Virus record (IMG/VR): IMGVR_UViG_3300042204_000022
Length of the DNA stretch: 64,000 bases
Strand: one strand, 5' to 3'
Source of the DNA: a virus
Lineage: Duplodnaviria; Heunggongvirae; Uroviricota; Caudoviricetes
The position numbers and the translations under genes were made by a program. Position 1 is the first letter of the stretch. Every line of letters starts with the position of its first letter. Below are positions 17,660 through 56,755 of the stretch, in pieces. The notes below the pieces were generated by a model. That model had not been told where the DNA came from. It worked only from the letters and a program-made list of their open reading frames with translations, and did not search any database.

Positions 17660-17687
17660 GTATAATTTGTTATACTTGAAAGAGGTT

Positions 17688-20236: not shown

Positions 20237-20571
20237 TATTTTCTTCCTAATTTACGTTTGCGTTTTAATTCTTTGCGAGACTGACGAGCCCATGTTGCTT
20301 TTGTCTTATCTGGGTCATCTGGTGGAAATGTCCTGCGAGTCTTGCGGTTATTGACAACGATTTCGCCGTCGTTGCTAAAATTCAGGTTGTTTGATTTTTC
20401 TACTGGTCCCATTTACTTTTCCTTCTGTCCGAAGCCGAGCTTTTCTTTGTTTATGTGTTTTAAGTACCTGTTAAAAGCCTTAGCTAGAATCCTGACCTCT
20501 TTATTCTCGGCAGATTCTTCGAGGTCTTCTAGCCTCAGCAACAGTAACGCAAGTTCATCCATACTTCTATT

Positions 20572-21627: not shown

Positions 21628-21896
21628 TATTCTATTTCCTCTAGGGTTGAAATGTCGATTTCGTGCATCTCCATCTCGATACGCATTCCCCAATCAGCCC
21701 AACCGTTTTCAATGATGTAATGTTTTGTGTGTTCTTTTACGAATTGATCGTGTTCTTCTTGTGTGCTTATCGGGTAGGGCTGAGCAGATAAATGCTTTAC
21801 ATAATACCCTTTGACTTCACGAGTTCTATAGCCAACAAATGGGTCGGGCGTTTCTGGGGGCAGTGTTGTAGCCTTATACCTTTTTGGCTCAGTCAT
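21627..21896 (-). CDS. hypothetical protein
   Basis: ORF. Confidence 0.4.
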   Translation of the reverse strand: MTEPKRYKATTLPPETPDPFVGYRTREVKGYYVKHLSAQPYPISTQEEHDQFVKEHTKHYIIENGWADWGMRIEMEMHEIDISTLEEIE

Positions 21897-26180: not shown

Positions 26181-26412
26181 TTTGATTTTCTCCACGAAGG
26201 GCTACGAGTGTGGTGTCTCTTTTTCTAAGTATAGTATCTACGGTAACTCCGTAAGCGCCTTCAAGTACCTCTGATGCGAGGTTCATTCTTTTTTCTATTT
26301 CTGTAGCTTTTTCGCCAAGCTTTAGTATATGATCTACGATTCCTTCTGGACCCATAGATTCGAGTAGTTCAACTTCTGACAATCCGGGCAATGATTCTTG
26401 GCGTTCTATCAT
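26170..26412 (-). CDS. hypothetical protein
   Basis: ORF. Confidence 0.35.
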   Translation of the reverse strand: MIERQESLPGLSEVELLESMGPEGIVDHILKLGEKATEIEKRMNLASEVLEGAYGVTVDTILRKRDTTLVALRGENQNEE

Positions 26413-27680
26413 TCTACTTTACCTTCCTCTTCCATATCTAGTGCTTCTTCGTCCATCATCTTGCTTTCGTGAGCAAAAAATAGAGGACTCTTCAGCTTAG
26501 CAATATATGGGGCTAGACCTTCGATGCGAATACACACGCCTTCGTCACAAGGGCTTTCCTTGTCTAGCGGTACAGCATTAGCGTAACCACCATGTAGTGT
26601 ATCATGATAATTCGTATCTAACCACTCTTCAGGGTTAAAGTCTTGGTGCTTACCACGCCATAGTTCTGGCACGTGCTTCAAGCCACGATCGCGAGTCCAC
26701 TCTTTGAGCTGATCCCAGCTAAGGTCAGTCATAATACCCTGACCGTTGATCTGTGCGACACGGTAAACGTAGAAGTCGTTTGTCATGTGAGGCACACGGT
26801 AGGTATAGTTCTTCTGAATTGGTACACCATCTGGTGTCCATCCGATTAGCTCGCCATAAACGACGAAGTTTTCAGGAACGAGGTCGTCGTACTTCTTCGC
26901 TGCTTCAGTCCAGATGTCGTGTTCATAGAAGTGCATCTGACGTTCGTTATTCGCATCCTTAATAACACGGTTTGAACCGTACACGTGGTCGTATTCAGTT
27001 TTCTGCACACGTACACCAAGCTTAGATGCGACCTTCTCAACGACAGATAGTTTGCGTGCTACGGGAATGTTAGAGAAACGAAGCAGGGTACCGTGAAGCT
27101 TCTGAGTCACGATGATTTCTGTGTATGGCTTGAACGTATCGAGAACACGGTAGTACTGTGATGTGTCATAGTGACGAGGGAAGAGTTTTTCGTCTACACG
27201 AGTGAACACCTTGTGCTTGTTATTTTCGTGAGCTGGTGTTGATTTGCGCTTGACTTCATACTTCTTACAGATTTCGAAGCCATTCAATTCTTCAAATACG
27301 TCACCGACCTTAAGTTCGCTCAGGTCTACCTTAGTGTAGGCGAGAGATGAAAGTGGCATGAACAACGCATCAGAGCGGTTGCCGCGAAGCTTAATAGCCT
27401 TAACACGACGGTTGTCTTCGATGAATCCAGTCTTGTCTTTGTCTTCGTTAAACTCGTGATGACGAAACAGGTTGTTCTTAGCAGTGTACTCATCGCTAAG
27501 CTGCGTTCCCGCTACGAATACGACACCGACAGTGCCAATCTCAGTTTCCTTAGAAACTACCGCCTGCATACCCAGCAGTGGTGCACCAAGAAGATTGTCA
27601 CTGTTTTCAAGTGGGTTGAGAGCACTAATCTTTACGATCTGTGCTGCATAGTTTATGTTTTCAGGTTCTTTTAGTTTCAC
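26409..27680 (-). CDS. ATP-dependent RNA ligase (Rnl2-like motifs; N-terminal extension + C-terminal nucleotidyltransferase domain, DraRnl/Rnl5-like architecture)
   Basis: motif I TQKLHGT (KxHGT), motif III-like VYGELIGW, motif IV EGVCIRIEG, C-terminal K-rich; NTase domain located in C-terminal half. Confidence 0.65.
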   Translation of the reverse strand: MKLKEPENINYAAQIVKISALNPLENSDNLLGAPLLGMQAVVSKETEIGTVGVVFVAGTQLSDEYTAKNNLFRHHEFNEDKDKTGFIEDNRRVKAIKLRGNRSDALFMPLSSLAYTKVDLSELKVGDVFEELNGFEICKKYEVKRKSTPAHENNKHKVFTRVDEKLFPRHYDTSQYYRVLDTFKPYTEIIVTQKLHGTLLRFSNIPVARKLSVVEKVASKLGVRVQKTEYDHVYGSNRVIKDANNERQMHFYEHDIWTEAAKKYDDLVPENFVVYGELIGWTPDGVPIQKNYTYRVPHMTNDFYVYRVAQINGQGIMTDLSWDQLKEWTRDRGLKHVPELWRGKHQDFNPEEWLDTNYHDTLHGGYANAVPLDKESPCDEGVCIRIEGLAPYIAKLKSPLFFAHESKMMDEEALDMEEEGKVE

Positions 27681-34236: not shown

Positions 34237-35133
34237 TCAAGACTTTTTCCTAATTTTCACACTTTCCTTGAGGATTTTAGGGGCGACGTGCTTCCACTTG
34301 ACTGTATGATGAACCCTGAACGCATCCGTATTCACCCTATCGCCCCTGTTATGAAGAACTCCGATCTTAACACCAGAAGGGTGGCTCATAACCGAGTAGA
34401 AGGATTTAACATACGTGCCAAACTTTTTGTACATATCGGTGTTACCGCTATTGTTACTTTGGGTTTGCTTCTGGTTGATTGCGATGAATCCTGTCGTCAA
34501 GAAGAGCACGCCTCTACTGGATAGGGTGGTGTATGCAACAACATCGTCGTTCATTGTGCCCGAAAAGTCGAATGGTCTCTCGGTATCGATAATCCATGAA
34601 TTCATGCCTTTTCTTCTATACTGATCGACCGCCATTTTTGATTGACCGCCCCCAATATAGTCGCCTGACTGAGCCATGCAGATGGACTGAAGTCTTGGTG
34701 TTGATTTTAGGTAATCAAGCATTATTTCGAACACTTTGTCAAGTGCATTATTGTCTTCAGCGAGCATTTTTGAAGAATATTCGATCTGAGGATTCATTCT
34801 CCACCTAACTGAGTCGTAATCGTCTTCAAACTCAGCGAAATACCTGTAGCCAAGACCCTGTGCAATGTCAATACACGCTTGACGAGCGTAAACGATTGAT
34901 TTATGAAAGTTGAAGTTGTCCATAGAGTCGGTTAACCCCATGTAGGTCTTCTTGTTGAATACGACAATCTTGTCTTCGCCGAAAATCTCTTTATAGCGGT
35001 CTATAGTGGGGTCTAAATCATCAAGTACGATGTACCAATCCCCCGTATAGCCAAACCTTTTAAGAGTATTGACAGTAAATACGTTATCTGGTCTGCCATG
35101 AGACAAAATTAGAACACAAAAATTACTCTTCAC
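34237..35133 (-). CDS. putative nucleotide-sugar transferase (GT-A-like)
   Basis: ILSHGRPDN...LDDLD pattern; weak. Confidence 0.3.
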   Translation of the reverse strand: MKSNFCVLILSHGRPDNVFTVNTLKRFGYTGDWYIVLDDLDPTIDRYKEIFGEDKIVVFNKKTYMGLTDSMDNFNFHKSIVYARQACIDIAQGLGYRYFAEFEDDYDSVRWRMNPQIEYSSKMLAEDNNALDKVFEIMLDYLKSTPRLQSICMAQSGDYIGGGQSKMAVDQYRRKGMNSWIIDTERPFDFSGTMNDDVVAYTTLSSRGVLFLTTGFIAINQKQTQSNNSGNTDMYKKFGTYVKSFYSVMSHPSGVKIGVLHNRGDRVNTDAFRVHHTVKWKHVAPKILKESVKIRKKS

Positions 35134-39356: not shown

Positions 39357-40006
39357 ATATTCAGTACGGCTAGATGTAAAGCTTTGCGACCATTAAGTTC
39401 GCTGAGATGATACATATCTACACACTAGCCGTATTCGCGAGAGATAACGCTCTTTTTCTTTTTGTAGACTCTGTATCTATCTACTCTCATTATACATCAA
39501 GCTTATGCTTTGTAAAGTTCAAAATGGTGGAGCTGCGGGGTACTGCCCCCCGGTCCTCATAAAATCCAACTAGACTTCTACAGGTTTAGTTTCATTTATC
39601 CGTGAAACGACGGGATGTTTGCGGGGATCTCCTGCCAGGGCACTTTTTACGTTAAGTCCGAAACGTAAAGTTTGAGTTCGCTTTTGGCGAAACTCTTGTT
39701 CATTCTTCTCAATAGTTTGTGATACAGCCTGATCTCTTTGCGTCCAGAGCGTTTATTCTCCTTCTTCCCAGAGGGGCAATATCTACAGTAAGACAGACTA
39801 GCTGCCATAACGCGTCTCTTAAACCAGTGCGTAAGCTGGCTGAAGGCTAAACATTGCCTTCACTTTTGCGAATAGTTTTGCAATTAAAATAGTTTTAAGT
39901 CTTACGACTACCTGCGATCTAATTTTCAATATACAAGTCGAATCTTGGTCAACCCCATATAACTATTATATACCATAAGCATAAATAAAAAAAGTCTAAA
40001 AAAGTG

Positions 40007-40058: not shown

Positions 40059-41501
40059 ATGAGCTTTTTAGACGAATTGCAAAAGAATACAAACAAGAAC
40101 ACTCGCACACTCAATGGTGCGGTAACTAACGATAGTACCCTAGATGCTAATCTAGACTACTTCTCACTCGCAGGAGCGATGCGTAATCGTGTAAACGATA
40201 CACGCCGCCTTTTCGCTAAGGCTTTCGCAGCCGACCCGCAGACAGCTTTGCGTACACTATTCTATCTACGTGACATTCGTGGTGGTCAGGGTGAGCGTGA
40301 AGTCTTTCGTGCTGGTCTTCAGGAGCTAGAAGATATTTCGCCAGAAACCGCTAACTTGGTAATCCAAAACAACTGGATCGGTGAGTATGGCCGTTACGAT
40401 GATCTATTATCATTCCGCAACGGCGAAACACTCGGCGCTCTTGCAGAATTCATTCGTCACCAGCTCGATGCCGACACTGACGCTATGGCTGATGGTGATC
40501 CAGTATCGTTGCTTGCTAAGTGGCTACCTTCAGAAAACGCATCAAGCAAGACTACTCGTGGTCAGGCTGTTGCACTAGCTAAGTTGCTTGGCTTGAAGCC
40601 AAGTCAGTACCGCCGTAAGATCGTTGCTCTTCGTAAGTACATCAAGTTGCTTGAACAGCAGATGTCTAAGAACGAATGGTCTGAAATTGACTACTCTAAG
40701 ATTCCTTCACAGGCTGGTCGCAAGCACGTTAAGGCGTTTATGCGTCATGACGAAGAACGCTACCGTGACTTCTTGAGCAAGGTAGAAAAGGGTGAAGCTA
40801 AGATCAATACAAGCACTCTATACACATACGAAGTGTTTGACATGGTTCGCAGTGGTCACGACCAAGCTGCAAACGCAATGTGGGCTAACCTACCAGATTA
40901 CACAAACGGTACAGACGCACTTGTTCTCGCCGACGTATCTGGTTCAATGAGCGGTCGTCCTATGAGCGTATCAGTATCACTTGCCCTTTACTTCGCAGAA
41001 CGTAACAAGGGTGTGTTCAGTAACAAGTTTATGACCTTCAGCGAACGCCCAGCGGTTGTAGATGTAGTTGGTAACTCTCTCACAGATAAGCTTCGTTTCA
41101 TCGAAAGCCGTGACTGGGGTATGAGCACCAACCTTGAAGCTGCATTTGACGCTATTCTGTCAGCAGCCGTAGCATCTGGTCAGGGTCAAGACGGTATGCC
41201 TAAGACTCTATATGTCATCTCAGACATGGAGTTCAATCAGGCTGTATCAAACCCAAGCGAAAGCATCTTCGACAACGCACAGCGTAAGTTCAAAGAAAAG
41301 GGTCTTGAGCTACCACACGTAGTGTTCTGGAACGTCAACTCATGGCAAGACCAAGCACCAGCGACAAAATTTGACAATCGTGTTACACTTATCTCAGGTT
41401 CGAGTCAGAGCACATTCCAGCACGCCGTGAACGGCAAGACACCAATCGAGCTCATGCTAGATGTAGTGAACAGCGAACGCTACGCACAAATCGTACTTTA
41501 A
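40059..41501 (+). CDS. vWA-domain protein with N-terminal helical domain (DUF2828/TROVE-Ro60-like architecture)
   Basis: MIDAS motif LVLADVSGSMSG; ~280-aa N-terminal domain; immediately followed by tRNA-like ncRNA array. Confidence 0.55.
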   Translation: MSFLDELQKNTNKNTRTLNGAVTNDSTLDANLDYFSLAGAMRNRVNDTRRLFAKAFAADPQTALRTLFYLRDIRGGQGEREVFRAGLQELEDISPETANLVIQNNWIGEYGRYDDLLSFRNGETLGALAEFIRHQLDADTDAMADGDPVSLLAKWLPSENASSKTTRGQAVALAKLLGLKPSQYRRKIVALRKYIKLLEQQMSKNEWSEIDYSKIPSQAGRKHVKAFMRHDEERYRDFLSKVEKGEAKINTSTLYTYEVFDMVRSGHDQAANAMWANLPDYTNGTDALVLADVSGSMSGRPMSVSVSLALYFAERNKGVFSNKFMTFSERPAVVDVVGNSLTDKLRFIESRDWGMSTNLEAAFDAILSAAVASGQGQDGMPKTLYVISDMEFNQAVSNPSESIFDNAQRKFKEKGLELPHVVFWNVNSWQDQAPATKFDNRVTLISGSSQSTFQHAVNGKTPIELMLDVVNSERYAQIVL

Positions 41502-44656: not shown

Positions 44657-45461
44657 GAAAAGACTGCTGTACCTTGCTGTTGTAGCGGGTGCAGTATTTC
44701 TTATATTCATAGGCATACCGATTAAGTATGCAATTATGGATGGTGCTGAGCAAGAGGCTCGTCTCTATCAAACTGCTATACAGGCTGCCGATACTACACA
44801 GTTAAACTATTCTATTGATACAAAGCAGGGCAATGTTCTCGCCGAAGTAACTGTTAAGTCGGTTGACCTAGTTAAGTTCCCAGAAATGAACAAATCATTC
44901 TCTAAAGTAGAGAAGAGAGAGCAAACCTACACTAAGCACTACCGCACCGTCTGTACCTACGATGATGAGGGCAATGTTAAAGAGTGCCACCAAGAAACTT
45001 ATTATACTTGGGACACCACTGATAATTGGGAGCTGTCAGGCAGTCAAGTTGAGATGGCTGAGAGAAAGTACCCAATTAGTCTATTCGCATTAAGCACTCG
45101 TGGTGTTGATGCAAGTGAAATTATTGATGGTCAAGATGGTCATTACGTCTACGAACGCACAAAGGGTGGTATTTTTGGTAGATCATGGCTGAGTAGTGAT
45201 ACTGAGGGCGATAAAAGGTATTCTTATAGCATTTTAGAGCTGCCTAAGTCAGGCACGATTTTTTTGAACCTCTCAGAGAGCGTACAACCAGTTTTCGGTA
45301 ACAAAGTTGAGTTGCGTACCAAGAAACCAGCTGAACTCGTCACAGACGCTCAGAATAGCGTACAAACAAAAAGCACCGTTTTCACGGTGTTTTGGGTAAT
45401 TCTGATTCTTGCAGAGCTTGGCGGCCTAGGTTACGCTGTCTTTCGTTACGAAGATTATTAG
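44613..45461 (+). CDS. membrane protein (N- and C-terminal TM, periplasmic middle)
   Basis: downstream partner of LemA. Confidence 0.5.
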   Translation: MMYQPKDIATYLANKKRLLYLAVVAGAVFLIFIGIPIKYAIMDGAEQEARLYQTAIQAADTTQLNYSIDTKQGNVLAEVTVKSVDLVKFPEMNKSFSKVEKREQTYTKHYRTVCTYDDEGNVKECHQETYYTWDTTDNWELSGSQVEMAERKYPISLFALSTRGVDASEIIDGQDGHYVYERTKGGIFGRSWLSSDTEGDKRYSYSILELPKSGTIFLNLSESVQPVFGNKVELRTKKPAELVTDAQNSVQTKSTVFTVFWVILILAELGGLGYAVFRYEDY

Positions 45462-45609
45462 CTCTGACTTCTTCTAGAACCCTATTCATGACTCTAAAGA
45501 ATATTTCATCGTACTGCTGACACATCTCGTCAGCTATTTCGCTCACTCTTGCTTGACGCTCGAATGGGTCTTCTGGTAAATTCCATGTGTTTATTTTTTC
45601 GGGGCTCAT
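45382..45609 (-). CDS. hypothetical protein
   Basis: ORF convergent with upstream gene; weak. Confidence 0.25.
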   Translation of the reverse strand: MSPEKINTWNLPEDPFERQARVSEIADEMCQQYDEIFFRVMNRVLEEVRANNLRNERQRNLGRQALQESELPKTP

Positions 45610-45627
45610 ACCCCTATTATACTCTTG

Positions 45628-45702
45628 TGGCTCAGAGACTAGGGCTCGAACCTAGATAACAACCTTCAAAGGGTTGCGTCCTACCAGTTAGACGATCTCT
45701 GA
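45628..45702 (-). tRNA. tRNA-Gln(TTG)
   Basis: manual cloverleaf: acceptor TCAGAGA/TCTCTGA, T-loop GGTTCGAGCCC, anticodon loop CTTTGAA, CCA encoded. Confidence 0.7.
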
Positions 45703-45705
45703 TTA

Positions 45706-45793
45706 TGGCGGAAGACGTAGGACACGAACCCAACGCCCTTGCGAACGCACATATCTTAGCAGGATAGTCTAGCACCTCGCTAGTTCATCTTCC
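45706..45793 (-). tRNA. tRNA-Ser(GCT), type II
   Basis: 88 nt, long variable arm, anticodon loop CTGCTAA; T-loop with T58. Confidence 0.55.
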
Positions 45794-45797
45794 ATCT

Positions 45798-45871
45798 TGG
45801 CTGCCTCGCGTGGATTCGAACCACAATTAACTGATTCAGAGTCAGTCGTCCTACCATTAGACGACAAGGCA
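45798..45871 (-). tRNA. tRNA-Gln(CTG)
   Basis: anticodon loop ACTCTGA, T-loop GGTTCGAATCC. Confidence 0.65.
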
Positions 45872-45878
45872 ATAATTA

Positions 45879-45953
45879 TGGGGTGTCAGACGAGTCCCGA
45901 CATCGCAACTCCAACGTCACAGGTTGGTATGATTCCTTTTCACTACCGACACC
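45879..45953 (-). tRNA. tRNA-His(GTG)-like with G-1/C73 and aberrant T arm
   Basis: G-1 + GTGTCGG/CTGACAC acceptor, anticodon loop CTGTGAC; T arm non-canonical. Confidence 0.35.
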
Positions 45954-45961
45954 ATATTGTT

Positions 45962-46050
45962 TGGCGGAAGGCTGAAGTGTCGATCTCCAAGAGGTTGCCC
46001 CCTCCAACTGTTTTCAAGACAGTGCCCAGAGCCGTCTGGGATAACCTTCC
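45962..46050 (-). tRNA. tRNA-Ser(TGA)-like, type II, non-canonical T-loop ATCGACA
   Basis: acceptor GGAAGGT/GCCTTCC, anticodon stem ACTGT/ACAGT loop CTTGAAA. Confidence 0.4.
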
Positions 46051-46056
46051 TTATTT

Positions 46057-46139
46057 GGTCGCCCTACTAGGATTCGAACCTAGAGTCAATTAAGACAGCG
46101 GGTTTAAGCCGCCTGCGTGAACCTTTTCGCCATAGAGCG
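46057..46139 (-). tRNA. tRNA-Leu(TAA), type II
   Basis: anticodon loop CTTAAAC, T-loop GGTTCGAATCC. Confidence 0.6.
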
Positions 46140-46145
46140 ATATTC

Positions 46146-46231
46146 TGGTGCCGAAGGAGAGACTCGAACTCTCACGCCCTCACGGGCACTGGTTTCTAAA
46201 ACCAGCGTGTCTACCATTCCACCACTTCGGC
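46146..46231 (-). tRNA. tRNA-Leu(TAG), type II
   Basis: anticodon loop TTTAGAA, variable arm GCCCGTGAGGGCG. Confidence 0.6.
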
Positions 46232-46244
46232 ATAAATTGTTAAT

Positions 46245-46330
46245 TGGTACGTCTAGCTAGATTCGAACTAGCACACCCTTTCGGGCAACAGGGTTTGAGC
46301 CTGCCGTGTCTACCGTTCCACCATAGACGC
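46245..46330 (-). tRNA. tRNA-Leu(CAA), type II
   Basis: anticodon loop CTCAAAC. Confidence 0.6.
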
Positions 46331-46335
46331 TTATC

Positions 46336-46410
46336 TGGAGCACCCAACCGGAATCGAACCGATGTATTCCGCTTTGCAGGCGGTCGCCTAGGCCACTCGG
46401 CCATAGGTGC
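46336..46410 (-). tRNA. tRNA-Cys(GCA)
   Basis: anticodon loop CTGCAAA, T-loop GGTTCGATTCC. Confidence 0.65.
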
Positions 46411-46417
46411 ATAATTT

Positions 46418-46493
46418 TGGTGGCACCGGTTGGACTTGAACCAACGACCCCTCCCTTTTCAGGGGAGTGCTCTACCAGCTGAGCTACAGTGCC
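46418..46493 (-). tRNA. tRNA-Phe(GAA)
   Basis: anticodon loop CTGAAAA, D arm GCTCAGCTGGTAGAGC. Confidence 0.7.
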
Positions 46494-46496
46494 ACA

Positions 46497-46571
46497 TGGT
46501 CAGAGTTCTGGGAGTCGAACCCAGCATATCCCGCGTCCAAGGCGGGCATCACACCCCGCAATCTAACTCTG
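46497..46571 (-). tRNA. tRNA-Pro(TGG)
   Basis: anticodon stem CCCGC/GCGGG loop CTTGGAC. Confidence 0.55.
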
Positions 46572-46577
46572 ATAATA

Positions 46578-46654
46578 TGGTCAGGATAGGAAGTGCTGCC
46601 CTCCCCGCCTCTGAGTCCCAAACCCAGCGCTCTGCTAACATGAGCTATATCCTG
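46578..46654 (-). tRNA. tRNA-Pro(TGG)-like with non-canonical T-loop GGCAGCA
   Basis: good acceptor/D/anticodon arms (loop TTTGGGA) but T-loop lacks TTC. Confidence 0.4.
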
Positions 46655-46657
46655 ATA

Positions 46658-46731
46658 TGGCTCCTCCGACTGGACTCGAACCAGTAATAACTCCTTAACA
46701 GGGAGACGTGTTACCATTACACTACAGAGGA
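46658..46731 (-). tRNA. tRNA-Asn(GTT)
   Basis: anticodon loop CTGTTAA. Confidence 0.65.
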
Positions 46732-46745
46732 ATAAATTGTTAATT

Positions 46746-46821
46746 TGGCGGAGAAGACGGGATTCGAACCCGCGATCTCTCCCGTGACAGGGGAGTGTGT
46801 TAACCGCTACACCACATCTCC
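46746..46821 (-). tRNA. tRNA-Asp(GTC)
   Basis: anticodon loop CTGTCAC, T-loop GGTTCGAATCC. Confidence 0.65.
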
Positions 46822-46826
46822 AAATT

Positions 46827-46900
46827 TGGCAGGCCCCAAAAGATTTGAACTCTTACTAAGGGGTTTGGAATCCCTTGTGCTGCCATTACACTAGAGGCCT
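46827..46900 (-). tRNA. tRNA-Trp(CCA)
   Basis: anticodon loop TTCCAAA, T-loop AGTTCAAATCT. Confidence 0.6.
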
Positions 46901-47404
46901 AAAAGTGCTTAGTTTTGTTGATTTGTACTAAGCTTCACCGATTGGCGCTACCTGTCGCCATCAAATCGGGAACAAAATCCGGCAAGACCTTTCATCGGTA
47001 GCCTTGCATGAGCCTGACACTATGCTGTTTTCGCTTATTCAACACATAGCCGCGAACGTACTCGCAGAGGGCAGCGAAGCCCTATCGTACAACCAATATT
47101 CGTGGTTCAGTCTTTCAGCTAGACACGACGCATAGCTAGCTATAGCACTATACGCCTCTCAATTGGCTATCACCACTTATAGTATATGACCACGCGCCTC
47201 CCACAGTCGTGTTGGTTTCCCTCATACTCCTCTCTTTCGAGTGCTACCCTCATCACCGTGTTTTCGAGCTTTCGCATGTTCACAGCATGTTAGGGTAACT
47301 TTTAGCCTTGTCCGTCATTCTAATTGTTAAAGTAAAAGCACCAACCTTTGTGGGATTGGTGCCTTATATGTTTGTTTTACTTTGCTCTAACTATAGAGAA
47401 AACA

Positions 47405-47478
47405 TTAGACACCAATACCAAACTGATCTGGGCAATTCCAGAGCAATGAGGGCTGTAGATGACTAAATAAGTTACTCA
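47405..47478 (-). CDS. tiny leaderless ORF (24 aa) downstream of tRNA-array promoter
   Basis: ATG 7 nt after TATAAT; MSNLFSHLQPSLLWNCPDQFGIGV. Confidence 0.25.
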
Positions 47479-47479
47479 T

Positions 47480-47514
47480 ATCTCTATTATAGCACACATA
47501 AATATAAACGCAAG
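47480..47514 (-). promoter_or_regulatory. sigma70-like promoter with extended -10 (TTGCGT-N16-TGTGCTATAAT) feeding minus-strand tRNA array 1
   Basis: near-identical to promoter at 56720-56755. Confidence 0.55.
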
Positions 47515-47635
47515 CACTTTTTATAAAAATAAACAAAAACACCCCACTCGAATGGGGTGACAACCACTGCGTTATACCTGATACGGCGGTCAAGGCAACC
47601 GTCCTTCCCGTAACGAGGTGTGTGATTCTTCGTTA

Positions 47636-47671
47636 CTTCTTATTATAGGCGGTCAAAATGCTTATGTCAAT
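47636..47671 (-). promoter_or_regulatory. sigma70-like promoter (TTGACATAAGC-N-TATAAT)
   Basis: minus-strand TTGACATAAGCATTTTGACCGCCTATAAT. Confidence 0.5.
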
Positions 47672-47814
47672 AGTCTGGGGGAGGGTTTTCGGCGAAAAAC
47701 ATTTGTTACCCTCTAATTTGTGTGGTCTTACATCAGAATTGATGAACGAATTCTACCCATCAAATCAACTACCTACCGATACGCTTATGTTATCAAATTA
47801 AATCTATATGTCAA

Positions 47815-47901
47815 TGGTACCAGCTGGAGGATTCGAACCTTCCGAAGCCCGAAGGCGAGTGATTTACAGTCACTATGCTTTGACCGCTTGCATAAACTGG
47901 C
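47815..47901 (-). tRNA. tRNA-Tyr(GTA), long variable arm
   Basis: anticodon loop CTGTAAA, T-loop GGTTCGAATCC, CCA encoded. Confidence 0.6.
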
Positions 47902-47904
47902 TTA

Positions 47905-47979
47905 TGGTGACCCTAGCGGGATTCGAACCCGCGATCCGGGAGTGAAAGTCCCGTGACTTAACCGCTTGTCCATAGGGCC
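47905..47979 (-). tRNA. tRNA-Glu(TTC)
   Basis: anticodon loop CTTTCAC, T-loop GGGTTCGAATCCCGC. Confidence 0.65.
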
Positions 47980-48079
47980 ATGAAATTAAAAAACCGCCTC
48001 TCGGCGATCTACTTTGAGCATATACAAAGAGTGCCGAGTTATTCGGTTACACGTTCCTCGTATGAATATGTCTTGCTCA

Positions 48080-48116
48080 TACCCTTATTATAGCACATGA
48101 AAAAAATAAGCACAAT
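48080..48116 (-). promoter_or_regulatory. candidate promoter with extended -10 TGTGCTATAAT for tRNA-Glu/Tyr
   Basis: weak -35 TTGTGC. Confidence 0.35.
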
Positions 48117-48121
48117 AAGTA

Positions 48122-48157
48122 TTGACTTTATTTCCGCTTACGCCTATAATGAAAAGC
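48122..48157 (+). promoter_or_regulatory. sigma70-like promoter (TTGACT-N17-TATAAT)
   Basis: upstream of 48192. Confidence 0.6.
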
Positions 48158-48191
48158 ATAAGCAGTCCTAAACTTCAAGAAAGGAAGAAAC

Positions 48192-48407
48192 ATGAAAGAA
48201 ATTAAAGAGCTTATCGATGTCACCCTAGCTTGGGGTAGTGATATAGCGGATTTGTGGACAGGTACACAATTCGAAAAACAAATAGACTTGCAGCAAGCAC
48301 AAATAATAAAAGCAGCAGAAAAAGAAGACTGGAAGAAAGCCGAAAATCTCACCACAGACTTAGCACAATTTCTCTTCTACGCTGAAGAGGAGTACGCACG
48401 TGGCTAA
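48192..48407 (+). CDS. hypothetical protein
   Basis: ORF. Confidence 0.4.
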   Translation: MKEIKELIDVTLAWGSDIADLWTGTQFEKQIDLQQAQIIKAAEKEDWKKAENLTTDLAQFLFYAEEEYARG

Positions 48408-53703: not shown

Positions 53704-54048
53704 TTCCCAATCTTCGGGAAAACTATCCATCGTTGCGAGATCGTGCAGTGAAGCTCTCTCGAATGCTTCAACGTCTGATCTTGAAATTTCTGGTAGGTTA
53801 AGGTGTTGTGGGTATTCGTTCTCTTTCATATATTCTGAAAGCTCTTGATACCCGTTTACAAAGTTGAACACATAGAACGATTGCTGAACTTCGTTGTCTC
53901 TGACATCATAGCAGTAAACGTGGTTGTAAATAGCGAGTTTACCCATGAAGGTGTATAGCGACGCGGTGTCTCTTCTCGCTTCAAACGTCTCCCCATTAGG
54001 GAGAGTTAGCTTTGCAACTGGCTCACTCTCATTCATGTCTCTTTCCAT
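53701..54048 (-). CDS. hypothetical protein
   Basis: ORF. Confidence 0.45.
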   Translation of the reverse strand: MERDMNESEPVAKLTLPNGETFEARRDTASLYTFMGKLAIYNHVYCYDVRDNEVQQSFYVFNFVNGYQELSEYMKENEYPQHLNLPEISRSDVEAFERASLHDLATMDSFPEDWE

Positions 54049-55024
54049 CTAGATAGAATCCGTCTTCTTGGAACATCACCGGCTGTATGTGGTGGTTTGA
54101 ACCGTTATGATCTATCATTATTAGTCCTTGCTGCCAGTCTTCGGCTCTTTTAACCAGTACGCCTTGCGAATCAACAGTATGACGAAAACCAGGCACAGCC
54201 CCGTCAGTACGAGCCAGACAACCGGGAGAAGCAGCAGCAATAGTAAGTTGGCCAATCCTGCGAGGGAAAGTACGATAAGCAAGCTCCTGTCTGTGGGTGT
54301 GTCCGTAGAGAGTTGTTTCTCTTTCTTCTTTGAGGTATTTTGCGGCATTTGAGCCTCCCTTGGCTACATTAGTTCCGTGAATAGCCTTTAGGTTATCCTC
54401 TAGCCACAATGTGCCGTTAGGGTAGCCGTCTATGCTGTTTATTTCTAGGTCATCGTATCTCACGAGATACTGAAGTGTTAGAACCGCAAGTTCGTGTGCT
54501 GCGTTCGCACGTCTCAATCCCAGAACTTCAGCTGCATTTTTGCGGACATAATCGTCCATGCGTTGTTCGTGATTGCCGTGTACAACAGAGATATTAGCAT
54601 CAGGTGCATTAGCACGGGTTTGTGCTAAGAAGTTATGATATGTATCGATAGCTCCCTGTGTTGACCCAACCCACTCTGTTCTTTGTGCGAAACGTGACAT
54701 TGATGGTAGGTCAACCATGTCGCCGACAAAAACAATGTTGTCTGGCTGAGTTTCAACTACCGCCTTCTGAAACCTATCGAATGCTTCTTGGTCGTGAAAG
54801 GGGATTTGTGCATCACCAGCGACGAGAGTACGAGCATCCGATCTGAAAGCTTTGCCTCTTCTGGTTGGCGTTATTTTAGTTGGTGCTGCTCTACTGACTA
54901 CTAGATCGTGTATATCTACATCTTCTACTGTGTGGTCATAGCTGTGAAGGGTTGTATGAACCCACTCACCTTTTTCGCGGTCGAAGGCACCAGCCTCCCA
55001 TGATTTGGCAGGTTTCTGCTCCAT
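54029..55024 (-). CDS. calcineurin-like metallophosphoesterase
   Basis: GDMVD...GNHE...GHTH motifs. Confidence 0.6.
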   Translation of the reverse strand: MEQKPAKSWEAGAFDREKGEWVHTTLHSYDHTVEDVDIHDLVVSRAAPTKITPTRRGKAFRSDARTLVAGDAQIPFHDQEAFDRFQKAVVETQPDNIVFVGDMVDLPSMSRFAQRTEWVGSTQGAIDTYHNFLAQTRANAPDANISVVHGNHEQRMDDYVRKNAAEVLGLRRANAAHELAVLTLQYLVRYDDLEINSIDGYPNGTLWLEDNLKAIHGTNVAKGGSNAAKYLKEERETTLYGHTHRQELAYRTFPRRIGQLTIAAASPGCLARTDGAVPGFRHTVDSQGVLVKRAEDWQQGLIMIDHNGSNHHIQPVMFQEDGFYLDGKRHE

Positions 55025-55153: not shown

Positions 55154-55229
55154 TGGAGGGCTCGGTGGGGATCGAACCCACGACTTTTCGGTTAAGAGCC
55201 GAATGCTCTGCCAGCTGAGCTACAAGCCC
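55154..55229 (-). tRNA. tRNA-Lys(CTT)
   Basis: anticodon loop CTCTTAA, T-loop GGGTTCGATCCCC. Confidence 0.65.
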
Positions 55230-55237
55230 ATAGTTTT

Positions 55238-55314
55238 TGGTGGAGTGACGGGGAGTCGAACCCCGCTCAGTCTGCTTGCAAAGCAGTCTCGCCTACCTCG
55301 GAACATGTCACCCC
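55238..55314 (-). tRNA. tRNA-Ala(TGC)
   Basis: anticodon loop TTTGCAA, T-loop GGTTCGACTCC. Confidence 0.65.
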
Positions 55315-55319
55315 GTGTA

Positions 55320-55396
55320 TGGTGCAGAGTCAGGGATTCGAACCCCGAACCTTCACGTTCGTAGCGTGATGCTCTATCCAGTTGAGCTAACCCTGC
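55320..55396 (-). tRNA. tRNA-Arg(ACG)
   Basis: anticodon loop CTACGAA, D arm GCTCAACTGGATAGAGC. Confidence 0.65.
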
Positions 55397-55399
55397 TTA

Positions 55400-55474
55400 T
55401 GGTTGCGGGCCAGGGAGTTGAACCCTGCTCTTAGGCTTATGAGACCTACCAGTTCACCGGAACTGTAACCCGCA
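55400..55474 (-). tRNA. tRNA-Met(CAT) (elongator/initiator/Ile2 not distinguished)
   Basis: anticodon loop CTCATAA, T-loop GGTTCAACTCC. Confidence 0.6.
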
Positions 55475-55500
55475 TTATGGGTACACTATTGCTACAATCA

Positions 55501-55571
55501 ACTCTTGGTTGGATTCGAACCAACGACCTACGGGTTTTCGACCCGTTGCTCTACCGCTGAGCTACAAATTC
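55501..55571 (-). pseudogene. chimeric tRNA-like element with non-complementary acceptor strands
   Basis: good D arm, anticodon arm (loop TCGAAAA, C33) and T arm GTTGGTTCGAATCCAAC but 5' GAATTTG vs 3' CAAGAGT do not pair. Confidence 0.4.
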
Positions 55572-55635
55572 TGACATAGTGTACGGTTCTGTAAAAGTAG
55601 GCGTGCACACCTACATGAACATACGAATTGTTAAA

Positions 55636-55712
55636 TGGTGGCTCCTCAAGGACTCGAACCTTGAACTTCTGGTATGTAACACCAGCGCTCTAACCAATTG
55701 AGCTAAGGAGCC
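55636..55712 (-). tRNA. tRNA-Val(TAC)
   Basis: anticodon loop GTTACAT, T-loop GGTTCGAGTCC. Confidence 0.6.
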
Positions 55713-55726
55713 ATGAGTTGTTATTT

Positions 55727-55800
55727 TGGTCGGCGTAGAAGGTAACGCTCCTTCGTCAACCGCGTATAAGACGGTCGCTCTACTTTTGAGCTATACGCCA
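55727..55800 (-). tRNA. tRNA-Ile(TAT)-like with non-canonical T-loop AGCGTTA
   Basis: acceptor TGGCGTA/TACGCCG, anticodon loop CTTATAC. Confidence 0.35.
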
Positions 55801-55804
55801 TTAT

Positions 55805-55880
55805 TGGTACCGCCGGAAGGATTTGAACCCTCACCGCCGACGTTAGAACCGTCGTGTGCTATCCATTACACTACAGCGGT
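55805..55880 (-). tRNA. tRNA-Arg(TCT)
   Basis: anticodon stem CGACG/CGTCG loop GTTCTAA, T-loop GGTTCAAATCC. Confidence 0.65.
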
Positions 55881-56216
55881 ATATCTTTGATAGGTTCTCT
55901 CTGCATGACAGTTCGCACAGACAACCTCACATTTCGCAATCTCATCAAGTATTCTTTTTTCTGAGTACCCCTTCTTGTGAGCTTTGCCTAGATCGAATAG
56001 CTTATCTTCATCACTCACGTGGTCATATTGCATGACATAAGGAGGGTACTGTATACCACAGTCTACACAAGGTTTCTGCTTATACGACCTGATTAGGTCA
56101 AGCAGTTTCTTCTTACGTGCGTCTGCCCTATCGATGTAATATTGCTTGTTGTTTTTGTAATGTTCACGAATATACTTTGCCATATATTCTTTTCTATTTT
56201 TGTGTTCTAAGGTCAT
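55866..56216 (-). CDS. HNH endonuclease inserted in tRNA array
   Basis: CVDCG...YDHVSDE...CANCH; 3' end overlaps 5' end of tRNA-Arg(TCT) by ~13 nt. Confidence 0.65.
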   Translation of the reverse strand: MTLEHKNRKEYMAKYIREHYKNNKQYYIDRADARKKKLLDLIRSYKQKPCVDCGIQYPPYVMQYDHVSDEDKLFDLGKAHKKGYSEKRILDEIAKCEVVCANCHAERTYQRYTAVV

Positions 56217-56245
56217 AATATAATTATAACACTTATGCTTTTGGT

Positions 56246-56323
56246 CGTGCTTCAGGGATTCGAACCCTGACCGTCTGGTTGGAAGCCAGAAATGCTAATC
56301 CATTGAACACCAAAGCACGGTCT
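56246..56323 (-). tRNA. tRNA-Gly(TCC)
   Basis: anticodon loop CTTCCAA, perfect acceptor CGTGCTT/AAGCACG. Confidence 0.6.
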
Positions 56324-56327
56324 TGGA

Positions 56328-56403
56328 GCCGCCTTCCGGAATCGAACCGGAAACCTGATGCTTACAAAGCAACTGCTCTACCAATTGAGCTAAGGCGGCG
56401 TAT
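56328..56403 (-). tRNA. tRNA-Thr(TGT)
   Basis: anticodon loop TTTGTAA, D arm GCTCAATTGGTAGAGC. Confidence 0.6.
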
Positions 56404-56406
56404 GGT

Positions 56407-56481
56407 TGGCGATGGAGGTGCTGCCCCTCCGACCTCTTGAGTATCAGACAAGTGCTCTACTGCTGAGCTAATCGCCAAAAT
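56407..56481 (-). tRNA. tRNA-Ile(GAT) with non-canonical T-loop GGCAGCA
   Basis: perfect acceptor TGGCGAT/ATCGCCA, anticodon loop CTGATAC; T-loop identical to that of 46578-46654. Confidence 0.45.
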
Positions 56482-56492
56482 GTTAATGTGGT

Positions 56493-56568
56493 GGGCTCGG
56501 TCGGAGTCGAACCGACGATCGTTCGCTTAAAAGGCGAGTGCTTGACCAAACTAGCTTCGAGCCCTTAA
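56493..56568 (-). tRNA. tRNA-Lys(TTT)
   Basis: anticodon loop CTTTTAA, T-loop GGTTCGACTCC. Confidence 0.55.
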
Positions 56569-56719
56569 GAATGAAAAAAGGGCTTTTTGCCCCTTACTAT
56601 AATCTACTTGAATGTGAAAATAATAAGGGTTTACTGTTTGGCTTTGCCTCCGCGAATGACCATAGCGAAAGAAGCCGTTGTCACGGTTGCCTTTGTTGTA
56701 GCTATAATTCTTTCAGCCA

Positions 56720-56755
56720 TATCTCTATTATAGCACAGAGAATAATAAACGCAAG
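56720..56755 (-). promoter_or_regulatory. sigma70-like promoter with extended -10 (TTGCGT-N17-TGTGCTATAAT) feeding minus-strand tRNA array 2
   Basis: near-identical to 47480-47514; followed 7 nt later by a tiny leaderless ORF. Confidence 0.55.

Follow-up and report, generated by a model that had tools for sequence, protein, structure and literature searches.

Candidate leader-peptide attenuators ahead of three tRNA arrays in a phage genome

What controls transcription of the tRNA genes that this phage carries in dense arrays, and does the promoter found ahead of one array, with a mini-ORF starting directly behind it, belong to that control? The window, i.e. the whole 64,000-nt stretch of DNA analysed (IMG/VR record IMGVR_UViG_3300042204_000022, Caudoviricetes), was the subject of an earlier note made from the sequence alone, which had placed fifteen tRNA or tRNA-like genes back to back on the minus strand:

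45628..46900 (-): array B, 15 tRNA(-like) genes, identified by ARAGORN, Rfam, fold, and synteny; CCA encoded in all

The fifteen-gene array stands, and so does the list of tRNA identities given in that note. Its order is Trp, Asp, Asn, Pro, Pro, Phe, Cys, Leu(caa), Leu(tag), Leu(taa), Ser(tga), His, Gln(ctg), Ser(gct), and Gln(ttg); the first Pro, the His, and both Ser genes have non-canonical T-loops and were missed by ARAGORN. Running that tRNA finder on 45628-46900(-) returned 11 genes (Trp, Asp, Asn, Pro, Phe, Cys, Leu x3, and Gln x2), so the majority were not rejected. Rfam added the other Pro gene, Pro(tgg)-like and located at 46581-46654 (tRNA model, 36 bits), and the Ser(tga) gene at 45966-46050 (tRNA-Sec model, 45.5 bits, slightly below the gathering score of 47); in all, 12 of the 15 members score above the Rfam tRNA gathering score and 11 of the 15 above the ARAGORN threshold. 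The Ser(gct)-like (~45706-45793) and His(gtg)-like (~45878-45957) elements were rejected by both ARAGORN and Rfam; we retain them for their cloverleaf-like predicted folds with correct anticodon loops, and for the ARAGORN-recognised Ser(gct) and His(gtg) genes that relatives have at these positions (all relatives come from a single phage family and are thus not independent replicates). A CCA end, previously credited to most of the genes, is present in 15/15 units, and the gaps between units are 3-14 nt.

Two further arrays lie on the same strand:

47815..47979 (-): array A, tRNA-Glu(ttc) and tRNA-Tyr(gta), identified by ARAGORN/Rfam
55154..56564 (-): array C, tRNA genes split by an HNH ORF
55866-56216: HNH ORF within array C, with its own leaderless promoter

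Array C has Lys(ttt), Ile(gat), Thr, and Gly before the HNH ORF, and Arg(tct), Ile(tat), Val, an odd tRNA-like element, Met, Arg(acg), Ala, and Lys(ctt) after it; Ile(gat), like the four array B genes named above, has a non-canonical T-loop and escapes ARAGORN. The 20 amino acids are divided among the three arrays, as A {E,Y}, B {W,D,N,P,F,C,L,S,H,Q}, and C {K,I,T,G,R,V,M,A}. The array C set is rich in hydrophobic and basic residues.

Ahead of each array lies a promoter-like element with an ATG close behind:

47508..47513 (-): unit B -35-like hexamer TTGCGT, 16 nt upstream of the -10, read directly
47486..47494 (-): unit B extended -10 TGcTATAAT, with ATG (47479) exactly 6 nt further
48087..48095 (-): unit A extended -10 TGcTATAAT
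56727..56754 (-): unit C promoter, TTGCGT, 16 nt, TGcTATAAT

The promoter-plus-ATG motif at 47513-47477 is as the earlier note described it, and the same arrangement recurs at 56754-56718, as also described; a third copy, absent from that note, is at 48095-48080, in a unit that spans 48095-47992 ahead of tRNA-Glu/Tyr. The hexamer TTGCGT is common to units B and C, and relatives have the consensus TTGACA there. All three leader ORFs start 6 nt past the -10 element, and since the unit B ATG lies at exactly this distance, transcription there is predicted to begin with the A of the start codon. The leaderless start is predicted solely from the TATAAT-N6-ATG spacing; in one relative (L095) the leader B homologue is not leaderless and has a ~20-nt 5' region instead. 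In a genome-wide count, 11 of 59 TATAAT sites show this spacing as compared to 0.86 expected, which is far above chance, yet not confined to tRNA arrays: it serves at least seven ordinary protein genes with recognisable N-termini, as well as the tmRNA promoter. On this sequence evidence, the extended -10 with its putatively leaderless ATG is a genome-wide start signal of the phage and not a tRNA-specific one. The proposal of a dedicated regulatory design for tRNA expression thus holds in part, in that the promoter/ATG arrangement does belong to such a design, but the design is not merely a promoter driving an array. Its predicted tRNA-specific parts are the terminator after the mini-ORF, an antiterminator anchored at the stop codon, a codon match, the third unit, and a structured RNA in the gap. 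Likewise, the promoter does lie ~500 nt upstream of array B, but the gap is not empty spacer, being occupied by the conserved structured RNA candidate.

The mini-ORFs are as follows:

48039..48080 (-): leader ORF A, MSKTYSYEERVTE plus stop; 5/12 residues are Tyr or Glu
47405..47479 (-): leader ORF B, MSNLFSHLQPSLLWNCPDQFGIGV plus stop; predicted leaderless
56631..56720 (-): leader ORF C, MAERIIATTKATVTTASFAMVIRGGKAKQ plus stop; 24/28 residues are from the array C set

They are 13, 24, and 29 codons long (A, B, C), and each resembles a list of the amino acids that its own array serves. In leader B, 19 of 23 residues come from the 10-amino-acid set of array B, and all 10 types are represented. 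At the level of anticodons, the leaders sample 2/2 (A), 14/14 (B), and 11/11 (C) of those in their own array, including codons as rare as AGA, ATA, and TGG and all three Leu species, while sampling of other arrays' anticodons is low (0-3), except for the short leader A (5/11 of array C). Residues counted by set (A/B/C) give 5/2/5 for leader A, 0/19/4 for leader B, and 1/3/24 for leader C (chi-square p=1.7e-9); the composition match was spotted post hoc. Own-set residues make up 48 of 63, a diagonal that none of 200,000 random amino-acid partitions reaches, and the in-set fraction of each leader is reached by at most 3 of 449 small ORFs within the window. Among 200,000 random ORFs drawn with phage codon usage, full anticodon sampling was reached by none of the 23-codon ORFs simulated for B and by 579 for C. 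Leader A by itself is marginal (binomial p=0.009; 24% in the isoacceptor test). Residues outside the sets coincide with segments of RNA structure, GIGV encoding the antiterminator strand and ASFA one side of a hairpin within the ORF.

Behind the ORFs we find predicted attenuator structures:

47992..48038 (-): unit A attenuator; CTCGGC just past the stop, inner hairpin, terminator GATCGCCGAGAGGCGGTT plus T-tract
47337..47363 (-): unit B terminator hairpin GGCACCAA..TTGGTGC, then TTTTACTTT; 10-bp stem, -13.5 kcal/mol
47407..47420 (-): unit B antiterminator 5' strand (last codons GGT ATT GGT GTC)
56577..56629 (-): unit C attenuator; antiterminator overlapping the 5' half of terminator AAGGGGCAAAAAGCCCTTT plus T-tract

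An intrinsic terminator follows each of the three mini-ORFs, at 47992-48009 (A), 47337-47363 (B), and 56577-56595 (C). Those of units A and C were recovered by a terminator scan, and that of unit B was missed by the simple scan because its loop exceeds 8 nt. Units that combine a mini-ORF with a terminator were found by genome scan only upstream of tRNA arrays. From the T-tract to the first tRNA there are 11 nt in unit A and 11-14 nt over units A and C, and a scan for sigma-70-like promoters found no promoter-like site in the unit B spacer; tRNA synthesis would therefore need read-through of the terminators. Nearby, at 47670-47540, lies another promoter-plus-terminator unit, which lacks an ORF.

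In each unit the 5' half of the terminator has a predicted alternative partner at or near the end of the ORF. No segment pairs more strongly with the unit B terminator 5' half than the antiterminator strand (-15.5 kcal/mol, vs -7.7 for the next best), and in the predicted nascent-RNA fold 10 of the 11 nt of that half are paired with this strand, which 0/60 shuffles reproduce. In unit A, CTCGGC pairs with GCCGAG of the terminator 5' half (-8.5 vs -2.8 kcal/mol next best). The unit C antiterminator, ACCCTTATTAT, begins 1 nt past the stop and pairs with ATAGTAAGGG; it is the predicted minimum-energy fold in all seven homologues. Compensatory changes are seen in unit C (CCCTTATA/TATAAGGG, CCCTTGTA/TACAAGGG, and CCCTATC/GATAGGG), and covariation of the replacement type in unit B (TTGGTGTC/GGCACCAA, GGGCG/CGCCC, and GTAGGTGTC/GACACCTGC). 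Over three unrelated leader families, the terminator 5' half is predicted to pair, in the nascent RNA, at or beside the stop codon in 14 of 15 units; in the B unit of L112, the antiterminator strand lies 28 nt upstream of the stop. Shuffle controls were strong for B (0-1/60), C' (0/60), and the C unit of L034 (1/60), and weak for unit A and several C units (3-14/60) owing to their short helices.

Taking the ORFs, terminators, alternative pairings, codon/anticodon match, and conservation as read from the sequence, we infer where transcription starts, that the ORFs are translated, that ribosomes stall on them, and which way regulation runs, and propose that each of the three minus-strand arrays is probably under a ribosome-mediated (leader-peptide) transcription attenuator. 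A sigma-70-type promoter would start transcription at or beside the AUG of a 13-29-codon leader ORF, the central codons of which would serve as a checklist of the codons read by the downstream tRNAs. With aminoacyl-tRNAs plentiful, the ribosome would reach the end of the ORF and cover or melt the stop-codon segment; with this segment masked, the terminator hairpin would form and RNA polymerase would halt before the tRNA genes. Were any sampled tRNA scarce, possibly through host tRNA decay, cleavage by a host anticodon nuclease, or codon-usage mismatch, the ribosome would stall upstream in the leader ORF, leaving the stop-proximal segment to pair with the terminator 5' half as an antiterminator and allowing read-through into the array, which in unit B would first pass the ~430-nt structured RNA. 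The outcome would be negative feedback, each array being transcribed when its own products are limiting. In array C, the HNH ORF splits the array and has its own promoter, so the distal tRNAs may escape attenuator C. The wider reading, of a closed loop of tRNA control in which three polyvalent leaders cover the 20 amino acids and all phage isoacceptors, each gates its own array, and array B travels with a new class of ~430-nt RNA, has in our estimate slightly better than an even chance of being right.

Translation of the leaders might instead act by a different or opposite logic, with pyrBI-type coupling or a block to Rho, so that good tRNA supply would raise expression in a feed-forward manner. 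Leaderless mRNAs load 70S ribosomes at their extreme 5' end, which would favour tight coupling. Moreover, the antiterminator of units B and C is the minimum-energy fold even without a ribosome, such that the default state would be ON and the terminated state would need active input; no obvious anti-antiterminator (1:2) pairing was found in these two units, and this counts against the proposed attenuators as well. Nonetheless, the ORFs end 30-42 nt before the hairpins, which puts the terminators beyond reach of a terminating ribosome and is too far for pyrBI-like masking. The only element that the ribosome can access is the antiterminator 5' strand, so finished translation should favour termination, and positive feedback on tRNA supply makes little regulatory sense. 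We rate this logic very unlikely.

Metagenomic relatives, from IMG samples that include 3300020201, 3300022924, 3300004463, and 3300023106, carry homologous leaders that bear on the proposed attenuators and on two further alternatives. Homologues of leader A are MSNVYYSEERITD in L001 and MTTTVTYYEERNVWYS in L078; those of leader B, from five lineages, are 24-30 aa long with residues partly reordered and composition unchanged; and those of leader C number seven distinct sequences, in which ORF indels are all multiples of 3 and downstream indels are not. A 26-nt block spanning the leader C stop codon is invariant, third codon positions included, and the leader ORFs stay open in every lineage. 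Sampling of own-array anticodons is again near complete: A 2/2 and B 14/14 in L078; C 10/10 and B 11/12 in L001; B 13-14 of 13-14 and C' 9/10 in L112, L164, and L165; C 10/11 in L035; C 8/8 in L030; and B 12/12 in L095. Leaders also follow changes in array content. The L112 clade has tRNA-Glu in its C' array, and the C' leader has 4 Glu as compared to 0-1 in C leaders; where tRNA-Tyr is in array B (the L112 clade and L095), Tyr appears in the sensor zone of the leader, from which it is absent in the window, L001, and L078.

In pattern scans for relatives, the exact promoter 20-mer had 0 matches in viral contigs; a 15-nt spacer motif was too unspecific, with 5 true matches among at least 119; the unit A pattern retrieved L001 and chance matches only; and a combined-motif search found no further relatives. 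The sole match in the genome collection, a Limisphaerales MAG, was taken as chance, being without tRNAs.

One alternative is that the mini-ORFs encode functional micro-proteins (in the case of C, a small membrane peptide), with leaky terminators, constitutively expressed arrays, and a codon match that is coincidence or by-product. The leaders of L025 (38 aa) and C' (53 aa) do have 20-22-residue hydrophobic stretches between charged residues, C' is conserved at the peptide level among L112, L164, and L165, and B leaders share a recognisable W..C..D.F pattern. Because set C is hydrophobic and basic and these longer C leaders look like small membrane proteins, the composition argument is confounded for unit C. 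Yet the C leaders of the window and L001 are too short and too polar for a membrane span, and the A and B leaders are polar, so that membrane character cannot account for their composition; residue order differs among lineages while composition stays constant; and only four near-identical homologues of the C' peptide exist among 5.8 billion proteins, which argues against a protein family outside these arrays. Such micro-proteins would leave the antiterminator strands at the stop codons unexplained, and the three-way match is beyond chance (the partition and 14/14 anticodon results above). We therefore regard this alternative as unlikely.

Alternatively, the units may be non-coding, acting as small RNAs or as RNA-only riboregulators (T-box-like, or antiterminators dependent on a protein) with untranslated ORFs. 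The invariant 26-nt block over the unit C stop does indicate constraint on the RNA and not on the peptide alone, the tmRNA promoter shows TATAAT-N6-ATG without a coding role, and the ORF-less promoter-plus-terminator unit at 47670-47540 adds to this. Against such a role, no T-box or other Rfam family was matched even at permissive thresholds (for the T-box model, E<=5 over 45300-48200). The ORFs stay open despite heavy divergence, with indels only in 3s, and a composition and anticodon match would be meaningless in untranslated RNA. Seven bona fide protein genes start with TATAAT-N6-ATG, so the host evidently translates such mRNAs. On balance, untranslated units seem distinctly unlikely, and we return to the leader-peptide attenuators as the favoured explanation.

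Between the unit B terminator and tRNA-Trp lies the remaining component:

46901..47329 (-): candidate conserved ~430-nt structured RNA, with conserved blocks and helices covarying in relatives

This RNA candidate is GNRA-rich and multi-helix, directly adjoins array B, and measures 210-450 nt in relatives; its full-length alignment is poor, and its structure is partly tool-supported and otherwise taken from reading the sequences. Searched by itself against Rfam at E<=10, the spacer showed two chance-level matches (snoRNA and PreQ1) and no others, and covariance models for RNase P RNA, group I intron, ROOL, GOLLD, tmRNA, and 6S found no match in the spacer. ROOL and GOLLD are large ornate phage non-coding RNAs associated with tRNAs. 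The candidate resembles them as a conserved structured RNA beside a phage tRNA array, but it is smaller and has no sequence or structure match to either.

To our knowledge, regulation of phage tRNA genes is largely uncharted, and why some phages carry near-complete tRNA sets is debated, the proposals being that they compensate for codon usage, offset the decay of host tRNAs, or evade defences that cleave tRNAs. A literature search turned up no account of tRNA genes under leader-peptide attenuation. The tRNA clusters of T4 and T5 are likewise packed among homing-endonuclease ORFs and stable RNAs of unknown function. The T5 annotation shows a promoter, then the 719-nt RNAX, then tRNA-Arg; in a control scan of T5's 16 tRNA groups, no composition-matched mini-ORF lay upstream, save a Cys-rich ORF resembling a zinc ribbon, and we came across no attenuator design described for these groups. 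A possible precedent in E. coli, a leader ORF upstream of the tRNA-Phe genes, was rejected, as pheV has none. In pheST (with its pheM leader) and in T-box riboswitches, genes of the translation apparatus are tied to the availability of charged cognate tRNA. The phage units would similarly tie a component of the translation machinery to charged tRNA supply, whereas pheM responds to a single amino acid and governs a synthetase, and the T-box binds uncharged tRNA directly, without translation, and has no match here. We know of no case in which pheM or a T-box controls tRNA genes themselves.

Among classical leaders, thrL senses Thr and Ile, and ilvL senses Leu, Val, and Ile. The trpL, hisL, thrL, and ilvL attenuators of E. 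coli/Salmonella, outlined in PMC3082878 and PMC11857589, offer a close comparison in layout: they share with the phage units a short promoter-proximal ORF rich in regulatory codons and a terminator ahead of the genes under control. They also have, as is predicted for the phage units, a competing antiterminator, the 5' strand of which is masked by a ribosome at the end of the ORF. The phage units differ in being phage-borne and in regulating tRNAs instead of enzymes; in leaders without single-codon runs, which carry 2, 10, or 8 amino acids with each isoacceptor once or a few times; in that the three leaders jointly cover 20 amino acids; and in having, in units B and C, no obvious 1:2 pairing. 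The ilvBNC leader of Corynebacterium glutamicum, IlvL MTIIRLVVVTARRLP, has its transcription start 1 nt from the start codon and no ribosome-binding site, and is a multivalent Ile/Val/Leu sensor with terminator and antiterminator hairpins, according to PMC11857589 (citing Morbach et al. 2000). It resembles the multivalent, predicted leaderless leaders of the phage units, and differs in serving a bacterial biosynthetic operon and sensing three related amino acids, with no list matched to tRNA genes.

If the proposed attenuators are real, they extend textbook attenuation from amino-acid biosynthesis to tRNA genes, and a leader that samples every tRNA of its array would be a direct sequence-level sign of a phage monitoring tRNA availability. 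Under the closed loop, the phage would sense depletion of any tRNA species, as in host shut-off or defence by anticodon nuclease, and make that group; the prediction is that withholding one tRNA switches on one array. Such a compact natural sensor of tRNA supply could be used in synthetic biology. The units also suggest a search rule for viral and bacterial tRNA arrays, namely an upstream short ORF with codons that mirror the downstream anticodons.

Over the whole window at the gathering threshold, Rfam reports tRNAs and one tmRNA and nothing else; this tmRNA was not recognised by ARAGORN. A near-identity DNA search of isolate phage genomes gave tRNA-Asp as the sole match, and a distant DNA search of the same genomes with the spacer and leader B as query gave none. 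The genome also encodes an RNA ligase, a CCA-adding enzyme, a metallophosphoesterase, and a Ro-like protein, and this gene content, with the tmRNA, suggests that the phage invests heavily in maintaining tRNAs and translation. The terminase is only ~30% identical to those of Bacteroidota phages, and mycobacteriophage proteins match the Ro-like protein at 56% identity.

In the whole window ARAGORN finds 23 tRNA genes, all on the minus strand and in three groups, and Rfam recovers several that ARAGORN misses. With amino acids assigned from ARAGORN, Rfam and folding combined, the groups and two of the added genes are:

47815-47979, minus strand, array A (E, Y)
45628-46900, minus strand, array B (W, D, N, P, F, C, L, S, H, Q)
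55154-56564, minus strand, array C (K, I, T, G, R, V, M, A)
46581-46654, minus strand, second Pro(tgg) of array B, above the Rfam tRNA threshold
45966-46050, minus strand, Ser(tga) of array B, just below the Rfam tRNA-Sec threshold

The 20 amino acids are split among the three arrays without overlap. The earlier note had read 15 tRNA or tRNA-like genes in the array B interval, and this reading holds up: ARAGORN, the check it had proposed, accepts most of them (11/15), and the Pro(tgg) and Ser(tga) matches add two. The remaining two, one Ser(gct)-like and one His(gtg)-like, are called by neither ARAGORN nor Rfam; they fold into cloverleaves with correct anticodon loops, and at their positions relatives have recognised genes for these same two tRNAs. 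The encoded CCA end is present in 15/15 elements, which are spaced 3-14 nt apart. By itself such an array is ordinary for a large phage, but the control region ahead of it is not.

The promoter-plus-ATG motif lies at 47513-47477, exactly where the earlier note placed it, with the second copy at 56754-56718; a third, absent from that note, precedes tRNA-Glu and tRNA-Tyr (48095-48080). TATAAT-N6-ATG occurs at 11 of the 59 TATAAT sites in the window, versus 0.86 expected. The motif is thus real and does head the tRNA units, but it is not special to tRNAs, since it also starts ordinary protein genes (at least seven, whose N-termini are recognisable) and forms the tmRNA promoter; predicted leaderless starts are widespread in this phage. 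Units A, B and C (promoter, leader mini-ORF and terminator ahead of the array of the same letter) have mini-ORFs of 13, 24 and 29 codons, each followed by a hairpin and T-tract. Because only 11-14 nt separate the T-tract from the first tRNA in units A and C, and the stretch from the unit B terminator to tRNA-Trp holds no promoter-like site, read-through of the terminators is the sole route to the tRNAs.

The leader peptides are rich in the amino acids served by the array that follows them:

Leader A, MSKTYSYEERVTE, 5/12 residues in its own array's set
Leader B, MSNLFSHLQPSLLWNCPDQFGIGV, 19/23 residues in its own set, all ten types present
Leader C, MAERIIATTKATVTTASFAMVIRGGKAKQ, 24/28 residues in its own set

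The 3x3 table of leaders by arrays gives a chi-square p=1.7e-9, the observed diagonal is reached by none of 200,000 random amino-acid partitions (sets of 2, 10 and 8), and almost no small ORF of the window matches the in-set fractions. At the anticodon level, the leader holds a cognate codon for 2/2 own-array anticodons in A, 14/14 in B and 11/11 in C, and sampling across arrays is low; for B, none of 200,000 random ORFs with phage codon usage attains full coverage, and for C 0.3% do. The out-of-set residues map onto structural RNA segments: GIGV in leader B is a strand of the predicted antiterminator (the pairing that competes with the terminator hairpin), and ASFA in leader C is one strand of a conserved hairpin within ORF C.

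DNA and protein searches found no close isolate phage, and scanning viral and metagenome contigs by pattern and by protein yielded about ten related contigs with the same units. There are three A leaders in all, seven distinct C leaders (ending in RGGKAKQ in 7/7) and five B leaders:

Window, MSNLFSHLQPSLLWNCPDQFGIGV
Contig L001, MRTSSLHQQHLSLLNQPSCDFNWGYGV
Contig L078, MKATTLHQLNPSSWLQLCSQFNDTYGSGV
L112 clade (including L164 and L165), MKTLYSHSLLSQLWSNCPDQFSVGVVSYSS
Contig L095, MTYSLQQQLNCNHWPLSSDYFTLGA

In every case the relatives' leaders sample their own-array anticodons completely or nearly so. Across lineages the B leaders keep a constant composition with a partly changed residue order, as predicted by selection on codon content and not on peptide sequence. 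Relocations of tRNA-Glu and tRNA-Tyr offer a weak covariation test of the codon match. The L112 clade lacks unit A; its tRNA-Glu ends the C-type array (C'), whose leader has four Glu, and its tRNA-Tyr is in array B, with Tyr as codon 5 of the B leader. In L095, where array B also has a Tyr gene, the leader contains two Tyr codons, and the B leaders of the window, L001 and L078 have no Tyr in the sensor part. All indels within the C ORF keep to multiples of three, unlike the downstream ones. The idea that the units are non-coding riboregulators is contradicted by this coding signature and by the lack of an Rfam match for the units.

The terminator hairpins lie 30-42 nt past the stop codons, so that a terminating ribosome could not cover them. 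In predicted nascent-RNA folds, extended up to the terminator with its 3' half left out, the terminator 5' half pairs with a segment at the stop codon in 14 of the 15 units, which represent three unrelated leader families. The predicted antiterminators of the window are:

Unit A, 5' strand CTCGGC, immediately past the stop; partner GCCGAG
Unit B, 5' strand formed by the last codons, GGT-ATT-GGT-GTC; partner GGCACCAA
Unit C, 5' strand ACCCTTAT, from 1 nt past the stop; partner ATAAGGG

Compensatory pairs are seen among B units (TTGGTGTC/GGCACCAA, GGGCG/CGCCC and GTAGGTGTC/GACACCTGC) and among C units (CCCTTATA/TATAAGGG, CCCTTGTA/TACAAGGG and CCCTATC/GATAGGG). The per-unit shuffle control is strong for B and C' (0-1/60) and weak where the helices are short, in A and some C units, and we therefore regard the structural argument as supportive, not decisive. 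A 26-nt block across the C stop codon (GGAGGCAAAGCCAAACAGTAAACCCT; 56631-56657, minus strand) is invariant in 7/7 homologues, synonymous and third positions included, whereas the same seven leaders are ∼64% identical outside it. It includes GGAGG and a GGC-AAA-GCC mini-hairpin ∼11 nt upstream of the stop codon and may, we infer, act as a pause or positioning element.

We consider the control regions, whose layout matches the classical type, to be probably ribosome-mediated attenuators, with transcription starts, translation, stalling and polarity all inferred from sequence. Quick translation to the stop would mask the antiterminator strand, letting the terminator form and leaving the array untranscribed; a ribosome stalled at an earlier hungry codon would leave the strand free, allowing the antiterminator to form and the array to be transcribed. 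The opposite, pyrBI-like polarity is disfavoured by the geometry. It seems unlikely that the mini-ORFs instead encode functional micro-peptides ahead of leaky terminators: the long C-type leaders do resemble small membrane proteins, but this would leave leaders A and B, the anticodon-level match and the pairings anchored at stop codons unexplained, and a protein search found no homologues of the C' peptide outside these arrays. Under attenuation, since the downstream tRNAs decode the very codons that act as sensors, the circuit would be a negative feedback on phage tRNA supply, divided into three independently gated groups. If true, this would be a previously undescribed regulation of tRNA genes and would show directly what phages carry such genes for.

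The mechanism would be similar to trp/his/thr/ilv attenuation, the nearest match being the ilvBNC attenuator of Corynebacterium glutamicum, which is leaderless and multivalent (PMC11857589). Unlike attenuators of that type, the units belong to a phage and would gate tRNA genes, and their leaders form a checklist of up to 14 isoacceptors as compared to a one-codon run. Full-text literature searches turned up no published case of tRNA genes controlled by a leader peptide; Escherichia coli pheV has no leader ORF, and the phage T5 tRNA region shows no leader/array match. In the T5 record (L168), T5.070 (34627-34755), a 42-aa ORF directly upstream of tRNA-Cys, has five Cys in a CxxC...CxxC pattern that suggests a zinc ribbon; its link to tRNA-Cys is probably coincidence.

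The ∼500-nt gap noted earlier upstream of array B is more than plain distance, as ∼430 nt of it, GNRA-rich, are conserved in relatives:

46901-47329, minus strand, from the unit B terminator to tRNA-Trp
Relatives: L001 18385-18833; L078 1926-2245; L112 3020-3411; L095 385-597

Invariant blocks (GACGGACRAGGCTAA, TGGTTGTACGA, GATAAGCGA and CTACCRATGAAAGGTCT) alternate with variable insertions, and at least four helices covary; for example, the 3' hairpin keeps its pairing as GCTTAG/CTAAGC, GGGCGG/CCGCCC and GCTGG/CCAGC, and the hairpin with the GATAAGCGA loop has four different stems. It matches no Rfam family and, among the sequences compared, is confined to this phage family. We propose it as a candidate for a new structured RNA that is transcribed together with array B and presumably freed by RNase P cleavage at tRNA-Trp.

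Five further genes of the genome fit a phage lifestyle in which tRNA integrity is contested. Three of them, for a CCA-adding enzyme (20572-21693), an RNA ligase (26409-27680) and a metallophosphoesterase (54029-55024), each on the minus strand, together resemble a tRNA-repair toolkit, although every tRNA gene encodes CCA; the other two specify a Ro-like protein and a tmRNA. The tmRNA (39525-39956; Rfam, 72 bits; no ARAGORN call) has its own TATAAT-N6-ATG promoter (locus 39525-39973, minus strand) and adjoins the Ro-like (DUF2828/VWA) gene (40059-41501, plus strand). Between array A and unit B, 47540-47670 (minus strand) looks like a small RNA gene, with a perfect TTGACA-17-TATAAT promoter, a strong intrinsic terminator ∼95 nt on and no ORF. 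Downstream of tRNA-Tyr, 47701-47814 (minus strand; 78% identity to L001 18084-18158), with a TTGACA-16-TAACAT promoter-like site ahead, may be a second.

Non-canonical T-loops (GGCAGCA or GGCAGTA for TTCGAAT) occur in Pro*(tgg) (46581-46654), Ile*(gat) (56406-56477) and the tmRNA 3' end (39525-39560), all on the minus strand and with D-loops lacking the usual GG; further odd T-loops are found in Ile(tat) (55727-55800) and Ser*(tga) (45966-46050). Relatives have canonical versions of these odd-T-loop tRNAs. An odd tRNA-like element at 55484-55590 (minus strand) has a Phe-like body, with TCGAAAA as its anticodon loop, and its acceptor stem is weak. It is enclosed by an additional outer helix of 9 bp (GTACACTAT/ATAGTGTAC), after which comes CCA; its Rfam match is restricted to model positions 5-66. 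The motif TTAACAATT(T)AT, which may be a processing signal, is repeated in inter-tRNA spacers (e.g. 46732-46745 and 46232-46244), also in relatives, and stands right behind the unit B terminator (∼47325-47335). ORFs of the homing-endonuclease type lie inside the arrays: array C of the window is split by an HNH ORF (55866-56216, minus strand) that carries a leaderless promoter of its own, and L001 has such ORFs too (17400-17990 and 20180-20640), where an ORF-containing insertion breaks tRNA-Tyr and a LAGLIDADG ORF lies within array B.
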